NCBI GenBank assembly: GCA_963808235.1
Contig: CAWEEQ010000004.1
Coordinates: 2,656,001-2,720,000 of the forward strand
Direction: 5' to 3'
Length of the DNA: 64,000 bases
Origin: an uncultured delta proteobacterium
GTDB taxonomy: Bacteria; Desulfobacterota; Binatia; Binatales; Binataceae
In this document: positions 1 to 11,203 of the stretch, in pieces
Layout: every line of letters begins with the position of its first letter
Position numbering within the stretch: position 1 is the first letter of the stretch
Program-made: the position numbers and the translations under genes
The notes under the pieces: model-generated
What the model saw: only the letters and a program-made list of their open reading frames with translations
What the model was told of the DNA's origin: nothing
The model's database searches: none

Positions 1-278
1 CGTCGGCGGGACAAACGGTCGCATCCGCTCCCGCCGAGATAACGATCAACTTCGACGCTCCGATAGAGAAGCTGTTCGCCAAGCTGGAAGTGACCGGCGC
101 CGACGGCAAGAACGAAGCGGCCGGCGCTCCGCAGATCAGCGACGACGGACGGCGGATGTCGGTGAAGGTCAACGCGCTCAAACCCGGCGACTACGCGGTC
201 AAGTGGGCCGTCGTAGGTATCGATACGCATCATACGCAAGGCTCGTACACGTTCGCGATCGCAAGCGGAGGATCGTGA
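1..278 (+). CDS. copC: Copper-binding periplasmic protein CopC (5' truncated by the window edge)
   Basis: The frame is open from position 3: ..SAPAEITINFDAPIE...LKPGDYAVKWAVVGIDTHHTQGSYTF, matching the CopC C-terminal Y-x-V-x-W...D-x-H...G-x-x-x-F pattern; it overlaps the copD start (GTGA). Confidence 0.9.
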   Translation, partial: SAGQTVASAPAEITINFDAPIEKLFAKLEVTGADGKNEAAGAPQISDDGRRMSVKVNALKPGDYAVKWAVVGIDTHHTQGSYTFAIASGGS

Positions 279-1141
279 TCGAACCAGCGGTAATTCTGGC
301 CTGGCCATTGATCACGGCCCAGATCGTGATTTTTGGAACTGCGGCTTTTGCGCTGATGACATCACCTGGCGAGGTCCCGGGCGGCGATGGACCGACCCAC
401 GCCCTCATCGTGCTATGGCGCGGACTGGCGCTTGCGATTCTTGCAATTTCGCCGGTGAGGTTCCTGGCCGTGGCGGCCGGCATGGCCGACACTACGTTGA
501 AGGAAGCCATTCCATTTGTGCCGCAGATAATGCGCGAAACATTCGCCGGGCGGGTGTGGGCATGGCGACTCGGCGTCGACGCGATTCTGGCGATTGCGGC
601 GTGGCTTCCAGCGCGTCGGAAGCTCCCGGTTCTGATCTCCGCGATTTCGTGCGCACTGCTCCTATTCCAGAGCGTCACGAGTCACGCGGTGGATAGCGGC
701 GCGTACGCGATCGCAATTGTATTCATTCATCAGGTTGCCGCGGGCTTGTGGATCGGAGCGCTGGTAACCTTGCTGGTTGGAGCAACCTTCGGCCGCGCGG
801 GCGCCGAGTGGCTCAAGTGGGCTTCGGGGCGAGTGTCAACGACTGCGGGATGGTCGGTAGCGGCGCTTGCCATCACCGGCGCGATCAGGGCGTGGTACGC
901 GCTCGGACTGCGCTACGACCTGCTGGTGTATTCGCTCTACGGCCGCACCCTGCTCTGGAAGCTCGCGACCGCGGCAACGGTGATTCTGATCGGCGGATAC
1001 AACCGCTATCGCCTGGTGCCGGCAGTGGGCGAAGCGTCGGCGCGCACGACGCTGATTCATAATGTCACCCTGGAATGCCTGCTGCTGGCCGCGGTTCTCG
1101 GTTGGTCCGCGCTGCTGGCCAACACGCCGCCGCCGCATTGA
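275..1141 (+). CDS. copD: Copper transport membrane protein CopD
   Basis: Multi-TM protein with TSHA, FIHQVAAGLWIGAL and YGRTLLWK..GGYNR CopD motifs; GTG start at 275 overlaps the copC stop. Confidence 0.9.
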   Translation: MIEPAVILAWPLITAQIVIFGTAAFALMTSPGEVPGGDGPTHALIVLWRGLALAILAISPVRFLAVAAGMADTTLKEAIPFVPQIMRETFAGRVWAWRLGVDAILAIAAWLPARRKLPVLISAISCALLLFQSVTSHAVDSGAYAIAIVFIHQVAAGLWIGALVTLLVGATFGRAGAEWLKWASGRVSTTAGWSVAALAITGAIRAWYALGLRYDLLVYSLYGRTLLWKLATAATVILIGGYNRYRLVPAVGEASARTTLIHNVTLECLLLAAVLGWSALLANTPPPH

Positions 1142-1226
1142 CGAAAGTTTTGCGCCAGGCACCGCGATCGCGATGCCAATGGACATTGAACTCGGGGGAC
1201 GGTTACTTTAGAACGGTAACTGCGCT

Positions 1227-1541
1227 ATGAGGCAATTCTTTTCAAAGGCGGACTTGCGGGACCTGAGTTTGGTCATGGCCATAGTGATGCTGTTGGCCAG
1301 CATCCCCGTGACTGAGGGGTTCGTCGTCGTCTCGAGGCCGAGCGGACCAGAATTGACCGCCAACATTTGCCAGCCGATTCAAATGTTCGACCGCGCGTCG
1401 AACACGTTGCTCGCGCGCCCCGCGGCCGTCGCGCCGGAGGTCGTTCTCTGCGATCTGGGCCCGGCCGCGATAAAGGAGACGGTGCGATTGGTCGACATCA
1501 AGATCGCTCCCGACACTCCGCCCCCAAAGAGCCTCGTCTAA
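1227..1541 (+). CDS. Small exported/membrane-targeted protein with C-terminal PDTPPPK; candidate DUF2946/CruR-like regulatory uORF
   Basis: 104 aa; hydrophobic N-terminal segment, IC motif and second Cys, Pro-rich C-terminus; lies directly upstream of an OM transporter gene. Confidence 0.65.
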   Translation: MRQFFSKADLRDLSLVMAIVMLLASIPVTEGFVVVSRPSGPELTANICQPIQMFDRASNTLLARPAAVAPEVVLCDLGPAAIKETVRLVDIKIAPDTPPPKSLV

Positions 1542-1551
1542 GAACTCTCGA

Positions 1552-1642
1552 CAACGTTTCCTCTGATAGCCACGCTGCGAACCTCGCGGCGGAAGGCGTT
1601 TTCTCTGAGGCAAGCGGCGCGCCGCAAGGTGTCCGCTGGGAG
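1552..1642 (+). promoter_or_regulatory. Structured intergenic leader: two hairpins abutting the RBS of the OM barrel gene
   Basis: CGCTGCGA-ACC-TCGCGGCG stem, then AGCGG(C)GCGCC-GCAA-GGTGT-CCGCT (1613-1637, GNRA loop), immediately followed by GGGAG (1638-1642). Confidence 0.4.
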
Positions 1643-1649
1643 ATGTTCT

Positions 1650-2612
1650 ATGCGACGGAGTTATTGGGTTGCCCTGTTGGCAGGAGCGGCCGTTTTTCTG
1701 ATCGGCCTGACGCCCGATCTGAGCTGGGCCTGCGCTTGTGGATGTGGAGTCTACGAAGTCGGTACCGCAGCGTTGTTTCCGACCGACCACGGCGGAACGG
1801 TCTGGTTGGAGTATGACTACCAGGATCAGTACCTGAACTGGCATGCGACCCAAATCGCCTCAGGGGCCAAGAATGGCGACAAGAGAATCCGGACGCACTT
1901 TCTGACTCTCGGTGGTCAGTACATGTTCAACCGGAGTTGGGGAGTGCAGCTGGAGCTCCCGTACGCGTTTCGCTACTTCAAATCGACCAACGACGCCGGC
2001 CAGATTTTCGGGACCAACTTCAACACCATCGGGGACATCCGTATCCAAGGAATGTACACCGGGCTCTCGGAAGACATGTCGACGGGGCTGATGGCCGGCG
2101 CGAAGTTCCCGAGCGGATGGTGGACTTATCCGCATGCCGATCGAGACACCCAGATTGGCTCGGGGAGCACCGATCTACTGCTCTCGGCTTACCATCTCGG
2201 AACGTTTCCAACCCATGTTGGGAAGCTGCCGCTGACGTTCAGGGATCGCCCTTTCAACTGGTTTGTGCAGGCGTACGAGGATTTCCCGGTTTTCACGCAA
2301 GACCACTATACCCCGGGAAGGGAATTCGACTCGGCGCTGGGGGTCTACTACAACTTCGGCACGGTTGGCCCTTTGAAGGAACTCGCGCCGATGCTGACCT
2401 TTCTCGCTTCCGACCGCGCGCGTGACCAAGGCGCCTCTGCCAATCATGAGAACAGCGGCTATACGCGCTTTCTCATTGCTCCTGGAGCCGAGATCAAACT
2501 CGGAATCTTGCGACTATACGGAGACGTCGAGGTCCCGTTTTTTCAAAATATGATTGGTAATCAGATAACCGCGCCGCTCCTGTTCAAGACCATTGTAAGC
2601 TACGACTTCTAG
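1650..2612 (+). CDS. Outer-membrane beta-barrel transporter-like protein with N-terminal CACGC motif
   Basis: Signal peptide ending SWA, then CACGCG; alternating aromatic strands, GDIRI motif, C-terminal VSYDF beta-signal; ATG 1650 with GGGAG RBS. Confidence 0.75.
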   Translation: MRRSYWVALLAGAAVFLIGLTPDLSWACACGCGVYEVGTAALFPTDHGGTVWLEYDYQDQYLNWHATQIASGAKNGDKRIRTHFLTLGGQYMFNRSWGVQLELPYAFRYFKSTNDAGQIFGTNFNTIGDIRIQGMYTGLSEDMSTGLMAGAKFPSGWWTYPHADRDTQIGSGSTDLLLSAYHLGTFPTHVGKLPLTFRDRPFNWFVQAYEDFPVFTQDHYTPGREFDSALGVYYNFGTVGPLKELAPMLTFLASDRARDQGASANHENSGYTRFLIAPGAEIKLGILRLYGDVEVPFFQNMIGNQITAPLLFKTIVSYDF

Positions 2613-2621
2613 GAGCATCAG

Positions 2622-3155
2622 ATGCGCTCAAAAATGTCCTGGTTCGCCGCAGTTGTTGCCGGGATCCTTGCGTTTGCCGGTTCCAGCACTTTCGCGCGCG
2701 CGGCCACCGATGTCGGTCAGCCCGCGCCCGCGCTGGTCGTGCCGGAACTGGACGGCCAGGCGTTTGACCTAAGTGCGATGCGCGGGAAGGTCGTAATCGT
2801 CAATTTCTGGGCCACCTGGTGTCCTCCCTGCCGCGAGGAGATGCCGGCCCTCGACAGTTTCTATCGGCGCTATCATGGTCAGGGGCTTGAAATGATCGGT
2901 CTCAGCTCCGACCGCCCGCACAATCGGTCCGACGTGACCAAGGTCATGCAATCATTCAGCTATCCGGCGGCGATGCTGGATGACGCCAAGGTCAACGAGT
3001 TCGGCACATCCAGCGTTCTGCCGATCACCGTCATCGTGGATAGAAATGGCGTGGTGCGCGCGAAGCTTACCCCCGATCAAACCCCGGTTACCGAGAAGAG
3101 TCTATCCGACGCGGTGCTACCGCTGCTGGCGCAAAGTTCGGCGGCGAATCCTTAG
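2622..3155 (+). CDS. TlpA/ResA-like periplasmic disulfide reductase
   Basis: Signal peptide; VNFWATWCPPCREEMP thioredoxin motif. Confidence 0.92.
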   Translation: MRSKMSWFAAVVAGILAFAGSSTFARAATDVGQPAPALVVPELDGQAFDLSAMRGKVVIVNFWATWCPPCREEMPALDSFYRRYHGQGLEMIGLSSDRPHNRSDVTKVMQSFSYPAAMLDDAKVNEFGTSSVLPITVIVDRNGVVRAKLTPDQTPVTEKSLSDAVLPLLAQSSAANP

Positions 3156-3162
3156 GCTCCCA

Positions 3163-3492
3163 ATGAAGACCTTCGCCTTACTCGCGATCATTCTGATGGC
3201 TGGATGCTCAGCCGCGAACACTCACACCGGTGATATGGATCCGAGGCTCGCTGACCTGGAAGCACAGAGGCAGACGATCGCCGGGCGCGAGAAAAAGTGC
3301 ATCGACGAAACGCAGGCGCGTAGCCATGATCAAGTGGAGCGCGATCGGGAAGTTTTGGAATGCCACGCGACGGCGCATCACGAAAACGCCGAAATCTCCG
3401 AGCAAGAGCGCAAAGAATATGAGCTTCAGGCGCAGGAGGAGAGGCATCGTGCTTCCCTTATGGCGATTCTTACGACCTCTCAGCCACGCTGA
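3163..3492 (+). CDS. Hypothetical helical lipoprotein
   Basis: MKTFALLAIILMAGC lipobox from ATG 3163; coiled-coil-like body with two Cys. Confidence 0.7.
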   Translation: MKTFALLAIILMAGCSAANTHTGDMDPRLADLEAQRQTIAGREKKCIDETQARSHDQVERDREVLECHATAHHENAEISEQERKEYELQAQEERHRASLMAILTTSQPR

Positions 3493-3497
3493 GGACT

Positions 3498-4139
3498 ATG
3501 AATGGAAGTAGAATGGATTCGAGTCGAACTGCAGCCGATCTTGTTCATATGACTTCAACAGTGTCGATCGCCAGTACTGATTCGGCGCGCATCCCACAGG
3601 GAGGGGGTCTCGGAATGCAGGTTCTGCGCGATCTCGGTGGGGTCGCGCTGCTCGCAATCGCGTCGCTCGCGGCTGGACTCGTGATTAACCGGTTTTCACA
3701 CGGCCCGCTTCCAGTCGTGTATCAGACGCCAGAGGAGCGGTTCGATGCCGAGCTGACGACTCTGGTCGCGGCGCCGCCGTTTAAGATCGCGCCCGCGGCA
3801 ACGGTCGGACTCGATGAATTCCGCAAGGCCGTCGAAAGCAAGAGTGCGCTCATCCTGGATGCGCGCCCGTCCGTGTTCTTCGAACAGGGACACGTCCCGG
3901 GGGCGCTCAATCTCGCGCGAGACGACTTCGCGCGCGACTATCGGAACTTGGCTGGCGTGCTGCAGGCCGCCCATGACAAACCGATCGTCGTGTATTGCTC
4001 CGGTGGCGACTGTCATGACAGCCGGCTGGTTGCGAACGCGCTGCTGAGTCTCGGCATCAACAATGTGACGATCTTCACCGGGGGTTGGAATGAGTGGTCG
4101 GCGGCCGGACTGCCGGCATCGACGGGGAGCGGACCATGA
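3498..4139 (+). CDS. Membrane-anchored rhodanese-like domain protein
   Basis: TM segment; ILDAR..F..GHVPGA, active-site loop YCSGGDC, FTGGWNEW; start codon uncertain. Confidence 0.88.
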   Translation: MNGSRMDSSRTAADLVHMTSTVSIASTDSARIPQGGGLGMQVLRDLGGVALLAIASLAAGLVINRFSHGPLPVVYQTPEERFDAELTTLVAAPPFKIAPAATVGLDEFRKAVESKSALILDARPSVFFEQGHVPGALNLARDDFARDYRNLAGVLQAAHDKPIVVYCSGGDCHDSRLVANALLSLGINNVTIFTGGWNEWSAAGLPASTGSGP

Positions 4140-4624
4140 TGACGCTCGACAGCTCGCGCCGCTACGTCGTGTTGGCGATCAGCGCGGTGCTGGCCGGCGT
4201 GTTCATCTACGCGGGCATCGATAAGATTCGCGACCCGCTGCAGTTTGCGGATAGTATCGCGGCATTCGCGATCCTGCCGGTCGTGTTGATCAACCTGCCT
4301 GCGATCGGGTTGCCACCATTCGAGATAGGTTGCGCGCTCCTGTTGCTTCCGCCGGCGACCAGGCGGATCGGTGCGCTCGCCGTGGCTCTTCTGTCCGTCG
4401 TTTTCATGATCGCCCTGTCGTCCGCACTGCGTCGAGGTCTCACGCTCGACTGCGGATGTTTCGGGACCGGCGCGCCGTCGCGGCCGAGAATGTGGTTGGA
4501 GCTGGCGCTGGACGCAGGTTTGTTCGCGGGCGCGGTGTTCGTCTATTTGAGCTCGATCGCCCGCCTCTCCGCGCGGACGCCGTCTCTCTCTTCTTCACCG
4601 CAGCCTCAGGTTACAAACGAGTGA
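4136..4624 (+). CDS. MauE/DoxX family redox-associated membrane protein
   Basis: FIYAGIDK, LPPFEI, LDCGCFG motifs; ATGA overlap with the rhodanese stop. Confidence 0.9.
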   Translation: MMTLDSSRRYVVLAISAVLAGVFIYAGIDKIRDPLQFADSIAAFAILPVVLINLPAIGLPPFEIGCALLLLPPATRRIGALAVALLSVVFMIALSSALRRGLTLDCGCFGTGAPSRPRMWLELALDAGLFAGAVFVYLSSIARLSARTPSLSSSPQPQVTNE

Positions 4625-4666
4625 CCGGCGACAACAACAATCCAAATATCAGGAATGGATGCAAAT

Positions 4667-5266
4667 ATGAGTATTCATCGTAGTCTCAGATCTCTAGCTA
4701 TCGTCGCAGCAATAACGTCGAGCCTGCTCGCGGTGACTGGATGCCATCGCGGCGCCGCCGCGGATGACGCGGCCGCCTCGAACTGCCTCACGGACACCAG
4801 CCTCATCGATCAGAATGGCGACAAGGTCTCGCTCGCGTCGCTCAAGGGCAAGCCGCTGGTGGTGGATTTCATCTATACGTCGTGTCCGGGGCCGTGCCTG
4901 ATGGAGACGGCGAAGCTGGCCAACGTCGCGCTTCGATTGGGAAGCGATCTCGGTTCAAAGGTCATGATCGTTTCGATCAGCGTCGATCCCGAGCATGACG
5001 GGCCCAAACAATTGCTCGCTTACTCGCGTCAGCAGGGCGCGGACGAGAAGGGCTGGTATTTCCTGACCGGAGGTCCCGGCGACGTCGACAAAGCGCTGGC
5101 GGGTTTCAAGCTCAGCAGGCAAATCGAACCCGATGGCTCGGTCGGGCACCTGGTCGATATGATGCTTATCGGACCCGACGGGCGGCTGGTTCATGAATAC
5201 AACGGCGAAGTCGTAAAAGCTCAGACTATCGTCGATGATGTCAGGAAGACCCTGAACAAGAGTTGA
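4667..5266 (+). CDS. SCO1/SenC family copper chaperone (lipoprotein)
   Basis: DFIYTSCPGPC (CxxxC), ISVDPEHD, conserved His in VGH; lipobox VTGC. Confidence 0.9.
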   Translation: MSIHRSLRSLAIVAAITSSLLAVTGCHRGAAADDAAASNCLTDTSLIDQNGDKVSLASLKGKPLVVDFIYTSCPGPCLMETAKLANVALRLGSDLGSKVMIVSISVDPEHDGPKQLLAYSRQQGADEKGWYFLTGGPGDVDKALAGFKLSRQIEPDGSVGHLVDMMLIGPDGRLVHEYNGEVVKAQTIVDDVRKTLNKS

Positions 5267-5276
5267 AGGGTGCAGC

Positions 5277-5741
5277 ATGAGACGAGCAATCATTTTCGGA
5301 TCTTCGCTCGCGACGATTCTGGCGCTGGCATATTTGTGGCCGATGGTCGCTGGTTCGTCGGCGCAGAGCGGCGGTCCTCGCGGAGCGATGTGCGTCGCGG
5401 GCCATTGCTGCTGCTCGGGACGCGCAGAGGCGCAGACCGTCGCGGCTAACGAATCACAAGGCGCTCCGACGCTCGATCCAAAGCAGTTCGTGGGTCCGGT
5501 AAGAGAGGCGTACACATTTGCGGGGAAGGATCCCGCGCTGCTGGCGCAACTGCATTGCTACTGCGGATGCGACAAGGCGTTCGGTCATCAGAGCCTGCTC
5601 GATTGCTATCGCGGCACCCATGGAGCGACGTGCGAGGTCTGCACTCAGGAGGCGTTGCTGGCGAAGCGCATGTCGGAGCAAGGTTCGCCGGTCGATGAGA
5701 TACGCAACGCGATTCGCAGAAACTTCGCGCCCGACAATTGA
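5277..5741 (+). CDS. PCYCGC/CYCXC-motif Cys-rich exported protein
   Basis: LHCYCGC...GHQSLLDCY...HGATCEVC motif set; extra N-terminal MCVAGHCCC. Confidence 0.85.
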   Translation: MRRAIIFGSSLATILALAYLWPMVAGSSAQSGGPRGAMCVAGHCCCSGRAEAQTVAANESQGAPTLDPKQFVGPVREAYTFAGKDPALLAQLHCYCGCDKAFGHQSLLDCYRGTHGATCEVCTQEALLAKRMSEQGSPVDEIRNAIRRNFAPDN

Positions 5742-5795
5742 GTTGCGGGGGACAACCTATTTGCGACGTCGTGCTTTTCAATCACAATCGCTTCG

Positions 5796-6983
5796 ATGCG
5801 ATTGAATGCCGAAGCACAGCGACCGCCAGGTGACCGCCTGAAGGAAACCGAACGCCGACGCCGAATCATGATCGTGGCGGGCGAGGCGTCGGGCGACCTT
5901 CATGGCGGCGACCTGGCGCGCGAGATCGCGGCGCGCAATCCGGGCTGCGAACTGTTCGGAATAGCCGGCGAGAAGATGCGCGCGGCGGGAGTGCGAGCGC
6001 TGGTCAGGATGGAGGATATCCACGGGCTCGGACTCTCCGAACTCGCCTCGACGATCGGACGCACGGTTTCCGCGTTTCGCGAGCTGCGGAGGATCATCAA
6101 GCGCGACAAGCCCGACCTCGTGATCCTGATCGATTACGCCGAATTCAACCTGATTCTCTCCGGCACCGCCCGGCGCGCGGGCGTGCCAGTGCTCTATTAC
6201 ATCACGCCGCAGGTGTGGGCGTGGCGGCGCGGGCGCGTCGACAAGCTGGTCGATCGCGCGGACCGTCTCGCGGTGGTGCTGCCATTCGAGAAGGAGCTGT
6301 TTCATCGCGCGGGCGAGCGGGTTTCATTCGTCGGGCATCCTTTGCTTGACCGCGTCGCGAAGGTGTCGAGTCGCGCGGAGACGTTGAAGCTTCACGGATT
6401 TTCACCAGGAGCACGACTGATCGCGATTCTGCCCGGGAGCCGCCGCGCGGAAGTTCGCTACCTGCTGAAGCCGATGGTGGAGGCGGCGCGGATCATTGCG
6501 CGCGACAATAACCTGGAAGTAGCGCTCGCGCTCGCGCCGACGCTGACCCGCGACGAACTTGCCGCGGTCGGGCGCGCAGATCTCGCCGGAGTGCGAATTG
6601 TCGAGAACGATACGTATAGTATTGTCGCCGCGAGCCAGCTTGCGCTGGTGGCGTCGGGGACTGCCACGCTCGAGACGGCGCTGCTCGGATGCCCCGAGGT
6701 GATCGCTTACAAAGTCTCGCCACTTACCTATATTCTAGGGCGGATGCTTGTGACCGGAGTGGATTTTATCGGGATGCCGAACATATTGGCGGGCCAGCAA
6801 ATTGTGCCGGAACTGATCCAGGGCGAGGTGACCGTGGAAAACCTCGTGCGGGCCGCCGAGCCGCTGCTCAGCGATACGATTCGCGCCGAAACAGTAACGG
6901 CGCTCGGCGCGCTGCGTGACAAGCTGGGCGCTCCGGGAGCCGCCGGCCGCGTCGCCGAAATTGCGCTGAGCATGATCGCATGA
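5796..6983 (+). CDS. lpxB: Lipid-A-disaccharide synthase
   Basis: VAGEASGD, PQVWAWR, FVGHPL, LPGSRRAE, ASGTATLE motifs. Confidence 0.97.
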   Translation: MRLNAEAQRPPGDRLKETERRRRIMIVAGEASGDLHGGDLAREIAARNPGCELFGIAGEKMRAAGVRALVRMEDIHGLGLSELASTIGRTVSAFRELRRIIKRDKPDLVILIDYAEFNLILSGTARRAGVPVLYYITPQVWAWRRGRVDKLVDRADRLAVVLPFEKELFHRAGERVSFVGHPLLDRVAKVSSRAETLKLHGFSPGARLIAILPGSRRAEVRYLLKPMVEAARIIARDNNLEVALALAPTLTRDELAAVGRADLAGVRIVENDTYSIVAASQLALVASGTATLETALLGCPEVIAYKVSPLTYILGRMLVTGVDFIGMPNILAGQQIVPELIQGEVTVENLVRAAEPLLSDTIRAETVTALGALRDKLGAPGAAGRVAEIALSMIA

Positions 6984-8773
6984 AGATGCTCACCCCATTG
7001 CAATTGCGCATGCTCGGATACCTCCGCCGGTACATGTTTCCCTACGTGGTATTGCTTGCAATCGCGATGCTCACGCTGTCAGCGGCTACCGGGGGCGTGC
7101 CGGTGCTGGTACGGATGGTGGTCGATCTCGGGACCAGTCTCGGCGTTTCGCATCGTCTCGATAGGCACGGCGCCTTCATGCTGCGGGAATACTCGCTGGT
7201 GCTGGCGGGACTATTTTTGCTCCGCGCGATCGCCAATTTCTCCGATGACTATTTGAGCGCCTACATCGCCCAGAAGGTCACGATGGATCTTCGCGCCGAT
7301 CTCAACGAAAGCCTGCAACGCCAATCGCTCAGCTTTTTCAATCGCACCCCGACTGGAGTGATGGTTTCACGCGTGATCAATGATGTGAACCTCGTCACGC
7401 AAGCCATCACCAACGGAGTATTTTCCGTCTTCGGCGGCGGCGCGTCGCTGATAGTGCTTCTCGTGGTCGCATTCAAGCTCGATTGGCGGCTGGCGATTGT
7501 CGCCTTTATCGGTTTCCCAATCGTCGTCATTCCGATCGTAAGTCTTTCCAAGAAAGTGCGCCGCGAGACCAAGAATTCACAGAAGCAAATGAGCGGCCTG
7601 CAATCGCTGCTGCACGAAACCTTCCAGGGAAACCGCGTCGTCAAGGCGTTCGGGATGGAAGATTACGAGCGCAAGCGATTCAACCGCGAGCTGAAGCGCC
7701 TGTTTCGAATCTACCTGCGCGTCGCGCGAATCAAAGCGTTTACCGGTCCGCTGATCGAGGCGATGGGGGCGTTCGCGGTCGTGGCGGTCGTATGGTGGGC
7801 GATGGGCTCGCTGCAATCGGGCGCGCGCACGCTCGGTCAATTCGCCGGTTTTTTCACGGTGATGATCCTGGTGTACCCGCCCTTCAAGAGCGTCAGCAAG
7901 ACCAACAACACCATCCAGCAGGGGCTCGCCGCCGCCGAGCGCGTCTTCGAAATGATGGATCATCCGAGCGATGTGCCCGACAATCCCGATGCGACGGAGC
8001 TAGCGCACGGCCCGCATAGCATCGCGTTCGAAAACGTGAGTTTCAGATACGGCGAGGAATGGGTGCTGCGCGATATCAACCTCGAGATTGGCGCGGGCAA
8101 GGTGGTGGCGCTGGTCGGGATGAGCGGTGGCGGCAAATCCACGATCGCGGACCTGATTCCGCGCTTCTATGACGTTCAGAAAGGGCGCGTAACGATCGAC
8201 GGAATCGACGTGCGCAACCTGAAAATTGCATCGCTACGCGCGGAAATCGGCCTGGTCACTCAGCATACGTTTCTCTTCGACGACACGATTCGCGACAACA
8301 TCGCGTACGGCAGCGGCGACCGGAAACTCGATCGGCTGAGCGCGGCCGCCAAGCTCGCCAACGCGCACGACTTCATCTCACGGCTGCCGGCGGGCTACGA
8401 GACGATGGTCGGTGAGCTGGGCGTTCGCATGTCGGGCGGCGAGCGCCAGCGTATCGCGATCGCGCGCGCACTCTTGAAGGACGCACCGATCCTGATTCTC
8501 GACGAAGCGACTTCTTCACTCGACTCGGAGTCAGAACGATCGGTGCAGGAGGCGCTCGAGCATCTGATGGCGAATCGAACCACGCTGGTGATTGCGCATC
8601 GCTTGTCCACCGTGCGCCGCGCGGATCGAATTGTAGTGATCGTCCACGGTCGAATCGTCGAAGAGGGAACTCACGACGAGCTGTTCGCGCGGGGCCGCGA
8701 ATATCGCAAACTTTACGATCTCCAGTTCATGTCGCCCGAGGATCTCGCCGGCAACGGCGGACTCGTCAACTGA
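6980..8773 (+). CDS. msbA: Lipid A flippase ABC transporter MsbA
   Basis: TM domain plus NBD (GMSGGGKST, SGGERQR, ILDEATS); lies between lpxB and waaA. Confidence 0.92.
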   Translation: MKMLTPLQLRMLGYLRRYMFPYVVLLAIAMLTLSAATGGVPVLVRMVVDLGTSLGVSHRLDRHGAFMLREYSLVLAGLFLLRAIANFSDDYLSAYIAQKVTMDLRADLNESLQRQSLSFFNRTPTGVMVSRVINDVNLVTQAITNGVFSVFGGGASLIVLLVVAFKLDWRLAIVAFIGFPIVVIPIVSLSKKVRRETKNSQKQMSGLQSLLHETFQGNRVVKAFGMEDYERKRFNRELKRLFRIYLRVARIKAFTGPLIEAMGAFAVVAVVWWAMGSLQSGARTLGQFAGFFTVMILVYPPFKSVSKTNNTIQQGLAAAERVFEMMDHPSDVPDNPDATELAHGPHSIAFENVSFRYGEEWVLRDINLEIGAGKVVALVGMSGGGKSTIADLIPRFYDVQKGRVTIDGIDVRNLKIASLRAEIGLVTQHTFLFDDTIRDNIAYGSGDRKLDRLSAAAKLANAHDFISRLPAGYETMVGELGVRMSGGERQRIAIARALLKDAPILILDEATSSLDSESERSVQEALEHLMANRTTLVIAHRLSTVRRADRIVVIVHGRIVEEGTHDELFARGREYRKLYDLQFMSPEDLAGNGGLVN

Positions 8774-8821
8774 GATGCCTTGCTGCGCGCGCCCGAGCTT
8801 GCGCAAATCCATGAGGCTTCG

Positions 8822-10078
8822 ATGTTGAACGCGGCGTACAATTTGCTCTGGTATCCGGCGCTACCCTTCGCGCTGCTCGCGGCGCATCCGGCGAATATGC
8901 GGGATTTTTCCGAGCGCATGGGTCGTGGAGAATTTCCAGAAGCAACCGGCGCTCCGCGAATCTGGATTCATGCGTCCTCGGTCGGCGAAATAGAAGCTAT
9001 CCGGCCAGTCGCGATGGGATTGCTGGAGCATTATCCGAGTGCGGTCCTTGCGATTACCACCATGACCGCAACGGGCCGCGATGCGGCGGAGCGTCGAATA
9101 CCCAAGGCGTCGGCATGGATGCTCGCGCCGTTCGACACGCCGTGGGCGGTTCGATCGTTTCTGGCGCGCTTTCGTCCGAAGGTACTGCTGATCACCGAGA
9201 CCGAAATCTGGCCCAACTACTTTCGCGAGGCGGCGCGATTCGGCGCACGGATTGCAGTTGTCAACGGCCGCATGTCCGAACGATCGATGCGCCGCTATTT
9301 GCTTGCGCGGAGCCTGTTCGAAAACGCACTTGGGCGCGCGAACCTGATCATGACGCAGAGCAGCGACGATGCGTACCGCTATGCCAAGTTCGAGCTCGCG
9401 ACGAAAATCATCGTGACCGGAAATACGAAAATCGCGGAGCAGGTGGATGAAGCCGCGATTCGACCCGAACTGCTCGCGTTTGCGCCCGAACGGCAAATTT
9501 TGGTTGCTGGCTCGACGGCGGCAGGCGAAGAACCCGTCGTCGTCGATGCATATCGAATACTGCGTACGCGTTTTACGAGTCTCGCGCTGGTGCTGGCGCC
9601 GCGTCATCTGGAACGCGTTGGTGAACTCGAAAAGATGCTGCAAGCCGATTCGTTGCGCTACGTGAAGGCGTCGAGCCTGGGTCGCGAAAATTCGATCGGG
9701 AGCGCCAACATTTTGCTGCTCGATACGATGGGCGAACTGCGCGCACTCTATCGCCGCGCAACCGTCGCTTTCGTCGGCGGCAGCCTTGTTCCTGGACGCG
9801 GCGGCCAGAGCCCCGTGGAACCCGCGATGGCGAGCGTCCCGGTCCTCACCGGTCCGCATCACAAGAACCAACGCGAGGTTGTGAACGCCCTGCTCGAGGC
9901 TGGCGGAGCCGCGGTGGTCAAGAATGCTCGCGACATCGCAAACGAATGCACGCGTTGGCTTGCTGACGACGCGGCGCGGCAGGACGCGGGCCGCAGCGCG
10001 CAGATCGCGATCTCCAAACGATCGGGCAGCGCGCGAATCTCCGTTGAACAGATCCAGGCGCTGATCGATCGTGGCTGA
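8822..10078 (+). CDS. waaA: 3-deoxy-D-manno-octulosonic acid transferase
   Basis: WIHASSVGE, ETEIWPN, NGRMS, APRHLER, DTMGEL, GGQSPVEPA motifs. Confidence 0.95.
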   Translation: MLNAAYNLLWYPALPFALLAAHPANMRDFSERMGRGEFPEATGAPRIWIHASSVGEIEAIRPVAMGLLEHYPSAVLAITTMTATGRDAAERRIPKASAWMLAPFDTPWAVRSFLARFRPKVLLITETEIWPNYFREAARFGARIAVVNGRMSERSMRRYLLARSLFENALGRANLIMTQSSDDAYRYAKFELATKIIVTGNTKIAEQVDEAAIRPELLAFAPERQILVAGSTAAGEEPVVVDAYRILRTRFTSLALVLAPRHLERVGELEKMLQADSLRYVKASSLGRENSIGSANILLLDTMGELRALYRRATVAFVGGSLVPGRGGQSPVEPAMASVPVLTGPHHKNQREVVNALLEAGGAAVVKNARDIANECTRWLADDAARQDAGRSAQIAISKRSGSARISVEQIQALIDRG

Positions 10079-10081
10079 TTG

Positions 10082-11203
10082 ATGGCGTCTCGCGAGCCAG
10101 GCCGAAATCGCCCGCGAATCGAACGGCTGTGGACGCGGAAGCTTCCCGCGCGCGACTTGCCCGGATGGCTTCCACTCGCCGCCGCGGCCGGACTCTACCG
10201 CTTTGGAATCAGCGTCCGACATCTATATTGGCGGTTGAACAAGCGCCGGGTGGACGTGATGACGATCAGCGTCGGCAACCTGACGGTCGGTGGCAACGGC
10301 AAGACTCCGTTCACGCTGTTTCTCGCCAACCGCTTGCAGAGCCATGGTCTGAAGGTTGCGATAGTGAGTCGCGGCTATAATCGTGCACCGTCGCGAGCGC
10401 TCGCATTGCTGGTTGCCGACGGCGGCACCTTGAAAGTCTCACCGGAAGAAGCGGGCGACGAACCGACGATGCTCGCAAAGTTGTTCAGCGGACCGATCGC
10501 AGTCGCGCGGCGCCGAATAGATGCGATCGAGTTGCTGACGCAACTAGGCCCGCTCGATGCAGTTATCCTCGACGATGGATTTCAGCACGAACGGTTGTAT
10601 CGCGATGTCGATCTGCTGCTGGTGAGCAGCCAGCGGGGATTTGGCAATGGCTGGATGCTTCCGGCCGGCCCGATGCGCGAGCCGATCGGCTCCGTGAGGC
10701 GCGCCGACGCGATCGTGATCGTAAATTTTGGCGATCAAGCATCGTCCTTGCGTCCGTCCGAAATCGCGAAACTCAGCTCGCGAAAGGTTCTCCGCGCTTC
10801 GATTCGTCCGCACTCCTTCCTCGCTATCGAGAACGGAGAATGGCGCGAAATCCCGCTCGGCCTTGCCGGACGGCGGGTGCTCGCGGTCAGCGGCCTCGCC
10901 GACGCGAGCGGTTTTTATGCGATGCTGCGCGATCTCGACGCGGACCTGGTCGGTGTTTTCGAGTATCCTGATCATCATGCCTACACCAGTGCAGATTGGC
11001 AGACTATTGTGAATGCGATGCGCGATGTGGACCTGGTCGTCACCACCGAGAAGGATCTAGTAAAGCTGGAACGGTTTCCGTTCGCGCGCGATTCGCTATA
11101 CGCTCTCAGGCTCGAAGTTACGATGGACCCGGCCGATGCGCTGGCGCTTGATGAATTGATACTGGGCGCCGCGAACAAGCGCGCTGCCGCGTCGCACGCA
11201 TAG
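10082..11203 (+). CDS. lpxK: Tetraacyldisaccharide 4'-kinase
   Basis: [41 protein letters not shown] motifs. Confidence 0.97.

Follow-up and report, generated by a model that had tools for sequence, protein, structure and literature searches.

ORF104, a small gene upstream of copper-related genes in Binataceae, is a candidate leader peptide of CutF-like kind

A 64,000-nucleotide (nt) stretch of contig CAWEEQ010000004.1 (positions 2,656,001 to 2,720,000 of the forward strand; GenBank assembly GCA_963808235.1), which derives from an uncultured delta proteobacterium of the family Binataceae, was analyzed and is referred to here as the window. We focused on a small open reading frame (ORF), termed ORF104, which precedes the gene of a predicted outer-membrane β-barrel (the cargo gene) on the same strand. 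The Pfam search placed CopC (3-278) and CopD (203-1141) before ORF104, and a TlpA-like redoxin (2622-3155) followed by rhodanese, MauE/DoxX, SCO1 and PCYCGC downstream. The copper cluster described in the initial annotation of this locus was thus confirmed by the Pfam assignments of CopC, CopD, SCO1 and the TlpA-like redoxin. The same annotation had proposed that ORF104 is a metal-sensing leader peptide controlling the barrel gene. The pattern of codon selection revealed that ORF104 is a real, translated gene, and its product is probably an arrest or leader peptide acting in cis, which would detect a periplasmic signal via Cys48 while the ribosome is held at a proline run. The features of the locus are as follows.

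1186-1214, plus strand: promoter-like element, consisting of TTGAAC (1186-1191), a 17-nt spacer and TAGAAC (1209-1214).
1227-1541, plus strand: ORF104, with an ATG start, 104 codons and a TAA stop codon at 1539-1541.
1266-1316, plus strand: hydrophobic membrane or signal segment of ORF104 (approximately residues 14-30), preceded by a positively charged N-tail (R2, K7, R11).
1362-1382, plus strand: Cys motif N46-I-C48-Q-P50-I-Q52; the family consensus is [FL]TLDICHPLQ.
1486-1590, plus strand: C>G bubble resembling a Rho utilization (rut) site, with approximately 40% C and 17% G in 78-nt windows.
1506-1529, plus strand: candidate arrest motif A94-P-D-T-P98-P-P100-K101, assigned from its conservation and its CutF-like pattern.
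1530-1541, plus strand: tail SLV and stop codon, the latter lying at a fixed distance from the last Pro.
1542-1649, plus strand: structured spacer of 108 nt.
1572-1606, plus strand: GC-rich hairpin A, with arms at approximately 1573-1579 and 1585-1591, six pairs and a U-rich run (1599-1606).
1615-1638, plus strand: hairpin B, with nine pairs and a GCAA loop (1624-1627); its last pair takes the first G of the Shine-Dalgarno (SD) sequence.
1638-1642, plus strand: barrel-gene SD sequence GGGAG, which is kept in alignment A2 and is separated from the ATG by 7 nt.
1650-2612, plus strand: cargo gene, encoding a predicted outer-membrane β-barrel of 320 amino acids (aa).

The ORF of 104 aa with a hydrophobic N-terminus that had been reported for this locus was present at 1227-1541, with the hydrophobic segment at approximately residues 14-30. 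The N-region showed no obvious AxA cleavage site, and the N-terminal helix may be an uncleaved anchor. The AlphaFold2 model of the protein, built from a 93-sequence alignment, contained a helix (residues 7-25) and a β-hairpin (residues 32-45), and residues 46-104 were modeled without regular secondary structure; the predicted local distance difference test score (pLDDT) was 78 and the predicted template modeling score (pTM) was 0.33. The protein sequence ends in ...IAPDTPPPKSLV. The reported APDTPPPK motif was present, but it did not form the very end of the protein, since four more residues lie between the PPP run and the TAA. Similarly, two Cys residues had been reported and both were found (C48 and C75), but only C48 was conserved.

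The profile of 21 sequences (alignment A1) was scored against 1.84 billion protein representatives at E≤0.001. This search revealed 133 cluster representatives, nearly all of which were 95-120 aa in length and matched end to end. A word-based search revealed 218 proteins; the 120 listed were all without a Pfam domain, and any name they carried was 'hypothetical'. Within the genus, the proteins formed two subfamilies, one with 58-79% identity and the tail APDTPPPK plus three residues (subfamily 1) and the other with 33-42% identity and the tail APDPPPPK plus three residues (subfamily 2). The hallmarks of the family are an N-terminal membrane helix, one invariant Cys and a C-terminal tail of the form P[D/E]xPPP[K/E/R] plus three residues.

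Homologues had been predicted to keep the Cys and the Pro tail, and both were highly conserved. PPP was found in the last 15 residues of 115 of the 131 short representatives. Five of the 16 representatives without PPP carried near-variants (PRPP twice, PQPP, TPTP and IHPP), and the other 11 had no tail at all and were judged by eye to be truncated or frameshifted. The last Pro was followed by exactly four residues to the end in 97/115 representatives; the residue after the last Pro was K (81), E (22) or R (12) in all 115, and the final residue was A, V, I or L in 81/115. One Cys, C48, was invariant in 21/21 sequences of alignment A1 and in 93/93 aligned members. P95, D96, P98-P100 and K101 were invariant in 21/21 sequences, and P98-P100 in 93/93, whereas C75 was not conserved in the 21-sequence alignment. 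The mean column identity of the 93-sequence alignment was 33%, and its only invariant columns were C48 and P98-P100.

The distance from the Cys to the last Pro was 51-55 residues in 112/113 representatives (52 or 53 in 98), a ruler that is possibly inflated in part, because the family was collected with a profile that penalizes insertions and deletions. Despite this near-fixed length, the sequence between the Cys and the Pro run was hypervariable. The distance from the helix end to the Cys, by a crude measure, varied from 9 to 22. The Cys was followed by His-Pro in 73/113 representatives and by Gln-Pro in 13/113, and the window copy has Gln-Pro. An additional conserved motif, A-R-P (residues 63-65), was present in both genus subfamilies, and the family contained neither CXXC nor RAPP (alignments A1 and A3). 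A lipobox reading of the Cys was rejected, as the preceding residue was, by eye, Ile, Val or Leu and not Gly, Ala or Ser.

The family was restricted to one lineage. Of the 25 Binataceae genomes sampled (nine genera), 23 had a match to the 93-sequence profile, and none was found in 175 genomes that represent another 19 families of the class; the unpublished genome G018 is counted here. In a six-frame protein search, the ORF104 open frame was retained in 34/36 other genomes of the genus, with two to four copies per genome, which is well beyond chance expectation, and a homologue was found in 0/24 genomes from other families of the class; the unpublished genomes G018 and G023 are part of these counts. 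Our search of the literature on CutF and CruR (2022 on) and on DUF2946 and copper revealed no paper on this family, the File S1 lists of PMC9973294 being outside its scope.

The ratio of nonsynonymous to synonymous substitution rates (dN/dS) was calculated along 13 subfamily-1 genes. The values were 0.21 for codons 1-13, 0.40 for codons 14-30, 0.32 for codons 31-54, 0.11 for codons 55-66, 0.41 for codons 67-93 and 0 for codons 94-101, the Pro motif of this subfamily having a dN of 0 and a dS of 0.32. The genome's own annotation begins the gene at Met17 (88 aa), and the relatives among the matches listed were mostly 104 aa. Because codons 1-13 were conserved, we placed the start at the ATG at 1227 and not at Met17. 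In the last three codons (1530-1538 in the window), dN/dS exceeded 1 in a small sample with a low dS of 0.16; the length of the tail is fixed and its residues are not.

The gene next to ORF104 homologues was compared across 42 loci (L001-L020, the L021 paralogue and L027-L047). In 42/42 loci, a copper- or metal-related gene from one of five families came next on the same strand, which agrees with the fixed upstream position that had been predicted. The loci are related, and they include kin and at least one duplicate pair (L037/L038), so that these counts overstate their independence; the cargo start codons were picked by eye from the SD and signal-peptide context. The next genes were distributed as follows.

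23 loci: CACGC barrel.
14 loci: barrel-like protein of approximately 320 aa with the predicted mature N-terminus HGVVGDY... (cleavage site inferred).
2 loci: SCO1/SenC, assigned at L040 only by N-terminal likeness at the locus end.
2 loci: YHS-like protein (E 1e-4, below the Pfam cut-off).
1 locus: FtrD-like protein, followed by a CACGC barrel.

The N-terminal-His cargo protein (HGVVGDY type) had no Pfam match. In the window, the barrel sequence begins with MRRSYWVALLAGAAVFLIGLTPDLSWA|CACGCG; the predicted signal peptide ends at SWA(27), and the mature protein begins C28-A-C30-G-C32-G. Residues A27 through V34 (A-C-A-C-G-C-G-V) were invariant in 19/19 homologues. Most CACGC-barrel homologues have, in front of the hydrophobic core, a pre-sequence approximately 19 residues longer (MRRISE...AGKTCRR...), which is lacking in the window copy (1650-1730). 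The AlphaFold2 model of the cargo protein was a β-barrel (pLDDT 71.6, pTM 0.71), and the best Protein Data Bank matches of this model identified by Foldseek were FapF (5o65, 5o67 and 5o68) and a COG4313 channel (4rl8), with E-values of 1e-8 to 8e-8. The template modeling scores were 0.61/0.71 to 4rl8 and 0.57-0.71 to FapF. The sole Pfam match of the cargo protein was OMP_b-brl (E=0.053); PF13557 (Phenol_MetA_deg) was unmatched at E≤0.1, and 13% of one Atlas neighbour cluster carries PF13557. In view of the CopC/CopD, SCO1 and TlpA neighbours, the cargo barrel likely has a role in copper uptake.

Leader and cargo gene are 108 nt apart in the window, and across 32 loci the gap measured 89-228 nt. 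Subfamily-2 spacers aligned through the first cargo codons (ATG CGG AGG A..) with either barrel type downstream, and because this alignment is independent of the cargo, leader and spacer behave as a cassette. The unit of promoter, leader and spacer thus appears to have moved between different cargo genes.

Several observations on the arrangement of these units were made in addition. A second leader copy, of subfamily 2 (...ETPDPPPPKSLC), is located on the same contig, 2.7 kb upstream (L021:8513-8833), where it begins three bases after an SCO1 gene. It is followed, 99 nt downstream (to the MRR start), by the gene of a 324-aa exported protein (L021:8927-9901) with the predicted mature end HGVVGDYVFLEPL..., and the two genes lie 1.2-2.7 kb ahead of position 1 of the window; the gene order in this genome is therefore subfamily-2 leader, 324-aa protein, CopC, CopD and ORF104. 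As the second leader and its cargo stand before CopC/CopD, the two-gene module is present as a tandem duplication around copCD, with a different cargo. The arrays of L011 and L012 (genomes G004 and G012) contain a leader, a YHS-like gene, an FtrD-like gene and a leader, and the second L011 leader is frameshifted. The L017/L028 spacer (172 nt) is a hybrid with a 5' half of subfamily-2 type and a 3' half of subfamily-1 type (U-run, hairpin B and SD), and its 5' half holds an apparent remnant of a cargo start (ATGAGGGG...TAG); this structure suggests recombination between cassettes. L037 and L038 have identical printed leader and downstream sequences, and their metagenome-assembled genomes are labeled 'Actinomycetes bacterium' and 'delta proteobacterium', which points to a duplicated or mis-binned contig. 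The copper/thiol island, of approximately 8 kb, lies within a set of lipid A genes (L021:4282-5654; window 5796-11203). FabZ-like and LpxA-like genes (Pfam) are found upstream of the island, with BamA- and Skp-like ORFs recognized by eye only further up, and LpxB, an MsbA-like ABC transporter, Kdo transferase and LpxK (Pfam) are found downstream.

The nature of the cargo and of the Cys motif bears on the signal that an arrest peptide would report. The signal could be something other than copper, namely the periplasmic capacity for thiol oxidation (through a mixed disulfide of DsbA/TlpA type) or for membrane insertion. A mixed disulfide is a better fit than a Cu(I) site for one invariant Cys, which is the single Cys in 43/115 representatives, and genes for a TlpA-like redoxin, SCO1, MauE/DoxX and rhodanese lie in the island. 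Moreover, a membrane segment combined with a C-terminal arrest motif is the architecture of monitoring substrates (PMC9973294; 10.1101/2023.09.02.556018). The cargo genes, on the other hand, encode copper- or metal-handling proteins and not Sec, YidC or Dsb machinery, and the Cys is followed by His-Pro in the majority of representatives (73/113), in line with the Cys/His motifs of CutF-like metal sensors (PMC9973294). We therefore regard a non-copper signal as improbable.

The region upstream of ORF104 was also conserved. The promoter-like element ends 12 nt before the ORF104 ATG, and no SD sequence was found upstream of ORF104. In 14 subfamily-1 upstream regions (alignment A6), TTGAAC was invariant and the second hexamer was TA(G/A)AA(C/G). 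Besides TTGAAC-N17-TA(G/A)AA(C/G), only the 12-13 nt before the ATG were conserved, and the sequences further upstream could not be aligned. The sigma-70 scan did not call the element, whose second hexamer is without the final T. The position of the element 12 nt before the ATG, together with the missing SD, suggests that ORF104 has its own promoter and a leaderless or very-short-leader mRNA.

Downstream of the Pro motif, the transcript is rich in C and poor in G. Besides the Pro motif, the C>G bubble takes in the stop codon and roughly 50 nt at the start of the spacer. The excess of C over G was +23 at the ORF104 stop, the 99th percentile for the whole 64-kb window being 17.9; over 39 loci its median was +20.5, and it reached at least the 97th percentile of its own locus in 37/39. 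The locus-wide maximum lay within 60 nt of the stop in 20/39 loci. Rho is encoded in the genome from which the window derives (701 bits). Such a bubble has been described in cruR, where it extends from the upstream ORF (uORF) into the intergenic region and where motif spacing matters; CruR carries CXXC and RAPP motifs, and Cu relieves the arrest, after which Rho terminates transcription in the 162-nt intergenic region (PMC9426467).

A structured spacer of approximately 110 nt had been reported, and the spacer was found to be 108 nt (1542-1649) with hairpins A and B. The reported last hairpin with a GCAA loop at the ribosome-binding site was also recovered, as it spans 1615-1638 and touches the SD. 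RNAalifold predicted both hairpins from 12 subfamily-1 spacers, in which 94% of the cells were paired compared with 29-58% for slid partners. Hairpin A was missing from one of the 12 spacers (G007) and had one pair with double changes. Hairpin B was kept in 12/12 spacers, with a compensatory change from G-U to C-G at one pair in two sequences. In subfamily-2 spacers, RNAalifold predicted an analogous hairpin pair. The covariation check proposed in the initial annotation gave a mixed result: the covariation score (0.187 vs 0.137 in shuffled alignments) was reached by only 2/500 shuffles, but the double changes were reached by 242/500, and the structure tested was derived from the same sequences. 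Covariation support for the hairpins is thus modest.

In CutF, stalling upon Cu binding is thought to open a stem-loop over the cutO SD (PMC9973294), and an analogous RBS-hiding hairpin, opened by a stalled ribosome, was implied by the initial annotation. This implication was not supported by our folding models. Partition functions were calculated for 32 loci with a 28-nt ribosome footprint blocked at the Pro run, and no stall-specific gain was observed in these thermodynamic models, so that direct unmasking of the SD by a stalled ribosome was rejected. Other RNA arrangements were rejected as well. Hairpin A and the U-run resemble an intrinsic terminator in most subfamily-1 spacers, but this was rejected, as the U-run lies 4-8 nt past the stem, the scan was negative and the hairpin is missing from one spacer. 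A predicted long-range helix, in which Pro codons pair with the first codons of the cargo (RNAalifold of subfamily 2; minimum free energy (MFE) structure of the window), consisted of invariant pairs only and was not counted as evidence, because complementarity between Pro codons (CCN) and G-rich Arg codons or SD sequences is expected anyway. An anti-SD pairing after the stop codon (GAACUCUC with GAGA.GUUC) was found in the MFE structures of some subfamily-1 spacers (L001, L002 and L009) and was not kept in others.

The conservation of the spacer raises the question of whether the element is essentially an RNA leader, composed of the hairpins and the C-rich tract, with incidental translation of the ORF. 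The two conserved spacer hairpins fit this explanation, as does the conservation of the nucleotides around the cargo start whatever the cargo is. Selection at the amino-acid level is, in contrast, clear (dN 0 and dS 0.32 in the Pro motif; dN/dS of 0.1-0.4 elsewhere), the protein motifs persist at approximately 25-30% identity and with different codons in the two subfamilies, and no Rfam family matched. A mere RNA leader is therefore highly improbable.

A further explanation is that ORF104 is a stable small inner-membrane protein that acts in trans in copper trafficking, its upstream position being due to operon ancestry; in this version, its Cys motif would handle Cu and its Pro-rich tail would contact another component, as in a membrane-anchored partner or chaperone. 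Purifying selection extends along the whole ORF, including codons 67-93 (dN/dS 0.41), the AlphaFold2 model reaches a pLDDT of 78 with a helix and a β-hairpin, A-R-P is conserved in both genus subfamilies, there are two to four copies per genome and the stall-footprint models revealed no RNA effect, all of which is compatible with a stable protein. We nevertheless consider both the trans-acting protein and its chaperone version unlikely. One small gene stands before five unrelated cargo families, which argues against a dedicated partner, and at the family level the middle of the protein is hypervariable in sequence while its length is constant within one residue. The protein ends in a set number of three residues whose identity is not fixed, and the last 59 residues were modeled without regular structure (pTM 0.33). 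Furthermore, the Pro motif equals the functionally required stalling motif of CutF, and neither the C>G bubble nor the long spacer with its structure would have a role if ORF104 were a stable protein.

Taken as a cis-acting arrest peptide, which we consider the probable explanation, ORF104 would be of CutF/CruR-like kind, would head a short-leader transcript of its own and would control the barrel gene 108 nt downstream. The N-terminal helix would target the nascent chain to the Sec translocon with the N-terminus inside, and the ribosome would pause on polyproline at the invariant P-D-T-P-P-P-K. Residues flanking a polyproline run tune its dependence on elongation factor P (EF-P). At the pause, Cys48 would be located 50-52 residues back, a distance corresponding to approximately 30 residues in the tunnel plus the membrane crossing, and would thus be just out on the periplasmic side. 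Copper bound at the Cys48 motif, or another thiol event, would alter the dwell time of the ribosome, which in the stalled state would occupy the C-rich, G-poor stretch from the motif over the stop codon into the spacer. In the output that we favor, which follows the CruR mode, this ribosome would block Rho, and its release would lead to Rho termination in the spacer before the barrel gene. In the less favored output, which follows the CutF mode, the structure at the barrel gene's ribosome-binding site would be opened. We favor Rho attenuation because the locus has a C>G bubble and a long spacer with structure, and because the cargo likely serves in copper uptake; we rank it above unmasking of the SD, which the folding models did not support. 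We infer the translation arrest, the ligand, the sign of the response, the involvement of Rho and the topology from these features.

Several results weigh against this arrest-peptide explanation. In the folding models, the mean unpaired probability of the cargo initiation region was 0.336 for the free RNA and 0.344 with the ribosome at PPP; it was 0.351 when the ribosome covered the stop codon and 0.370 when it covered an upstream control position. Hairpin covariation was weak, with only two double-change pairs, a number reached by 242/500 shuffles, and the single-sequence fold of the window spacer was unremarkable (z = -1.19). The terminator scan revealed no canonical intrinsic terminator, and no Rfam match was found at E≤1 in window positions 1-6000. 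The C excess is partly due to the Pro codons themselves. The ligand set is thin, comprising one invariant Cys, with Gln in place of the usual His in the window copy, and 43/115 representatives have a single Cys; the ruler between Cys and Pro also carries the possible inflation noted above. The variable middle of the protein is under purifying selection within subfamily 1 (dN/dS 0.41), and together with the model pLDDT of 78 this may be compatible with a stable small protein. The proline motif of CutF alone produced no detectable stall in a LepB reporter (PMC9973294). As had been anticipated for a divergent analogue, the search with the DUF2946 (PF11162) hidden Markov model (HMM) was negative: ORF104 was unmatched at E≤0.1, 0/93 members matched at E≤10 and no match was found in the whole genome at E≤1. 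Likewise, the 93 members showed no sequence-level link to DUF6769 or CzcI at E≤10. DUF2946 was also sought in the phylum as the source of a profile for comparison, but it gave only weak matches in 5/201 genomes, three of the five with internal stops.

We also considered, as a tentative and rather doubtful possibility, that a single Cys(-His) placed 52-53 residues from a polyproline brake is an independently evolved nascent-chain sensor of the periplasm, outside DUF2946 and carried together with its promoter and spacer in a portable cassette. The Cys would then be at the translocon exit during the pause, and the cassette would have recombined before at least five kinds of copper genes in Binataceae; this part of the proposal is equally tentative.

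To our knowledge, CutF and CruR are the only copper-responsive arrest peptides that have been studied, and they differ in mechanism. The approximately 115 diverged sequences of the ORF104 family, near-constant only in the Cys, the polyproline brake, the Cys-Pro spacing and the four residues to the stop, represent a natural experiment. As their spacing is nearly fixed amid variable sequence, alterations of that spacing offer a test of the idea that geometry at the translocon exit matters. With this family, leader-peptide control would reach an uncultured soil lineage and would cover small outer-membrane barrels that begin with a Cys-rich or His N-terminus and are candidates for copper channels. 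If the resemblance is convergent, the ruler and the P[D/E]xPPP[K/R] motif would represent a general design for transmembrane signaling through a translating ribosome, and the single-Cys version, if true, may report thiol or copper chemistry differently from CxxxC sensors.

To place the locus among known systems, the cargo barrel was compared with the COG4313 channel Pput2725 (4rl8) and FapF (5o65). The predicted fold matched both, with a sequence identity of 13-14%, and the CACGCG mature N-terminus of the cargo is not attributable to either structure. SecM, MifM, VemP and the RAPP-type substrates are similar to ORF104 in that they combine a membrane or signal segment with a C-terminal arrest motif, and in that the position of the stalled ribosome controls the downstream gene. 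In contrast, SecM, MifM and VemP regulate Sec, YidC or SecDF genes with other arrest sequences, and ORF104 has a copper-related cargo and no RAPP or SecM-type motif. By language model, the nearest named clusters to ORF104 were CzcI/DUF6769 (PF28244, PF20558), with DUF6769 accounting for 21/30 and CzcI for 8/30 neighbours at scores of 0.91-0.92, which are a lead only; no HMM match was found. The DUF6769 neighbour clusters were automatically named 'DUF2946 domain-containing' and shared 74-84 of 256 features. CzcI is among the CutF-like proteins but is without the C-terminal proline motif (PMC9973294).

CruR (bp2923 of Bordetella pertussis) resembles ORF104 in being a uORF at the front of an operon whose product is an outer-membrane copper protein, in the case of CruR one for uptake. 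Both are followed by a long GC-rich intergenic region (162 nt in cruR and 108 nt for ORF104), both show a C>G bubble that extends out of the uORF's 3' part into the intergenic region, and a poorly structured protein is predicted for both. Unlike CruR, ORF104 has neither CXXC nor RAPP and is not a member of DUF2946. The cargo of CruR is a TonB-dependent transporter, whereas that of ORF104 is a small COG4313/FapF-like barrel, and Rho dependence has been demonstrated for CruR but is only proposed for ORF104.

The most extensive similarity was found with CutF of Rhodobacter capsulatus (cutFOG), which must lie immediately upstream of cutO, and whose relatives, the CutF-like proteins, precede many metal genes (PMC9973294). 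These proteins were collected as ORFs of <150 aa that have a signal peptide, a neighbour on the same strand and PP among the final 15 residues (PMC9973294). ORF104 has 104 aa, PPP at 98-100 and a same-strand cargo gene at 108 nt; as for the signal peptide, it shows a positively charged N-tail, a hydrophobic segment at 14-30 and a modeled helix at 7-25. There are differences between the two. ORF104 has no detectable homology to CutF, and DUF2946 matched 0/93 family members; in place of the CxxxC of CutF, the ORF104 family has a single invariant Cys (in Cys-His-Pro, or Cys-Gln-Pro in the window). The hairpin in the 108-nt spacer of ORF104 abuts the SD and does not cover it, and our models showed no stall-dependent opening. 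CutF precedes a multicopper oxidase and ORF104 an outer-membrane barrel, and ORF104, unlike CutF, has its own promoter-like element without an SD and belongs to a family limited to a single family of an uncultured lineage.

The overall architectures of CutF and ORF104 were otherwise alike. Each is a small ORF of <150 aa located on the same strand directly before a copper gene. Both carry a hydrophobic segment of Sec type at the N-terminus, predicted in the case of ORF104, and a Cys-based motif in the part that is exported or, for ORF104, presumably exported, and each is followed by a structured intergenic region with a hairpin at the cargo gene's ribosome-binding site. The distance between the Cys and Pro motifs is 45 residues in CutF, where this spacing has been discussed as possibly critical (PMC9973294), and 50-52 residues in ORF104. 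In the CutF motif P109EPEGPPPRL118, regulation is lost once PPP has been changed to PAP, and EF-P plays a part (bioRxiv 10.1101/2025.02.05.636593). The initial annotation had regarded TPPP in place of RAPP as a sign of a possible new class of arrest peptide, which could not be upheld, because CutF ends in ...PEPEGPPPRL and so has the same pattern (bioRxiv 10.1101/2025.02.05.636593). The C-termini ...P-E-G-P-P-P-R-L of CutF and ...P-D-T-P-P-P-K-S-L-V of ORF104 share the form P-[D/E]-x-PPP-[K/R]. Judged by this shared pattern, the ORF104 family is a separate, lineage-restricted sequence family of CutF-like kind, that is, a new family or variant of that kind and not a new class.

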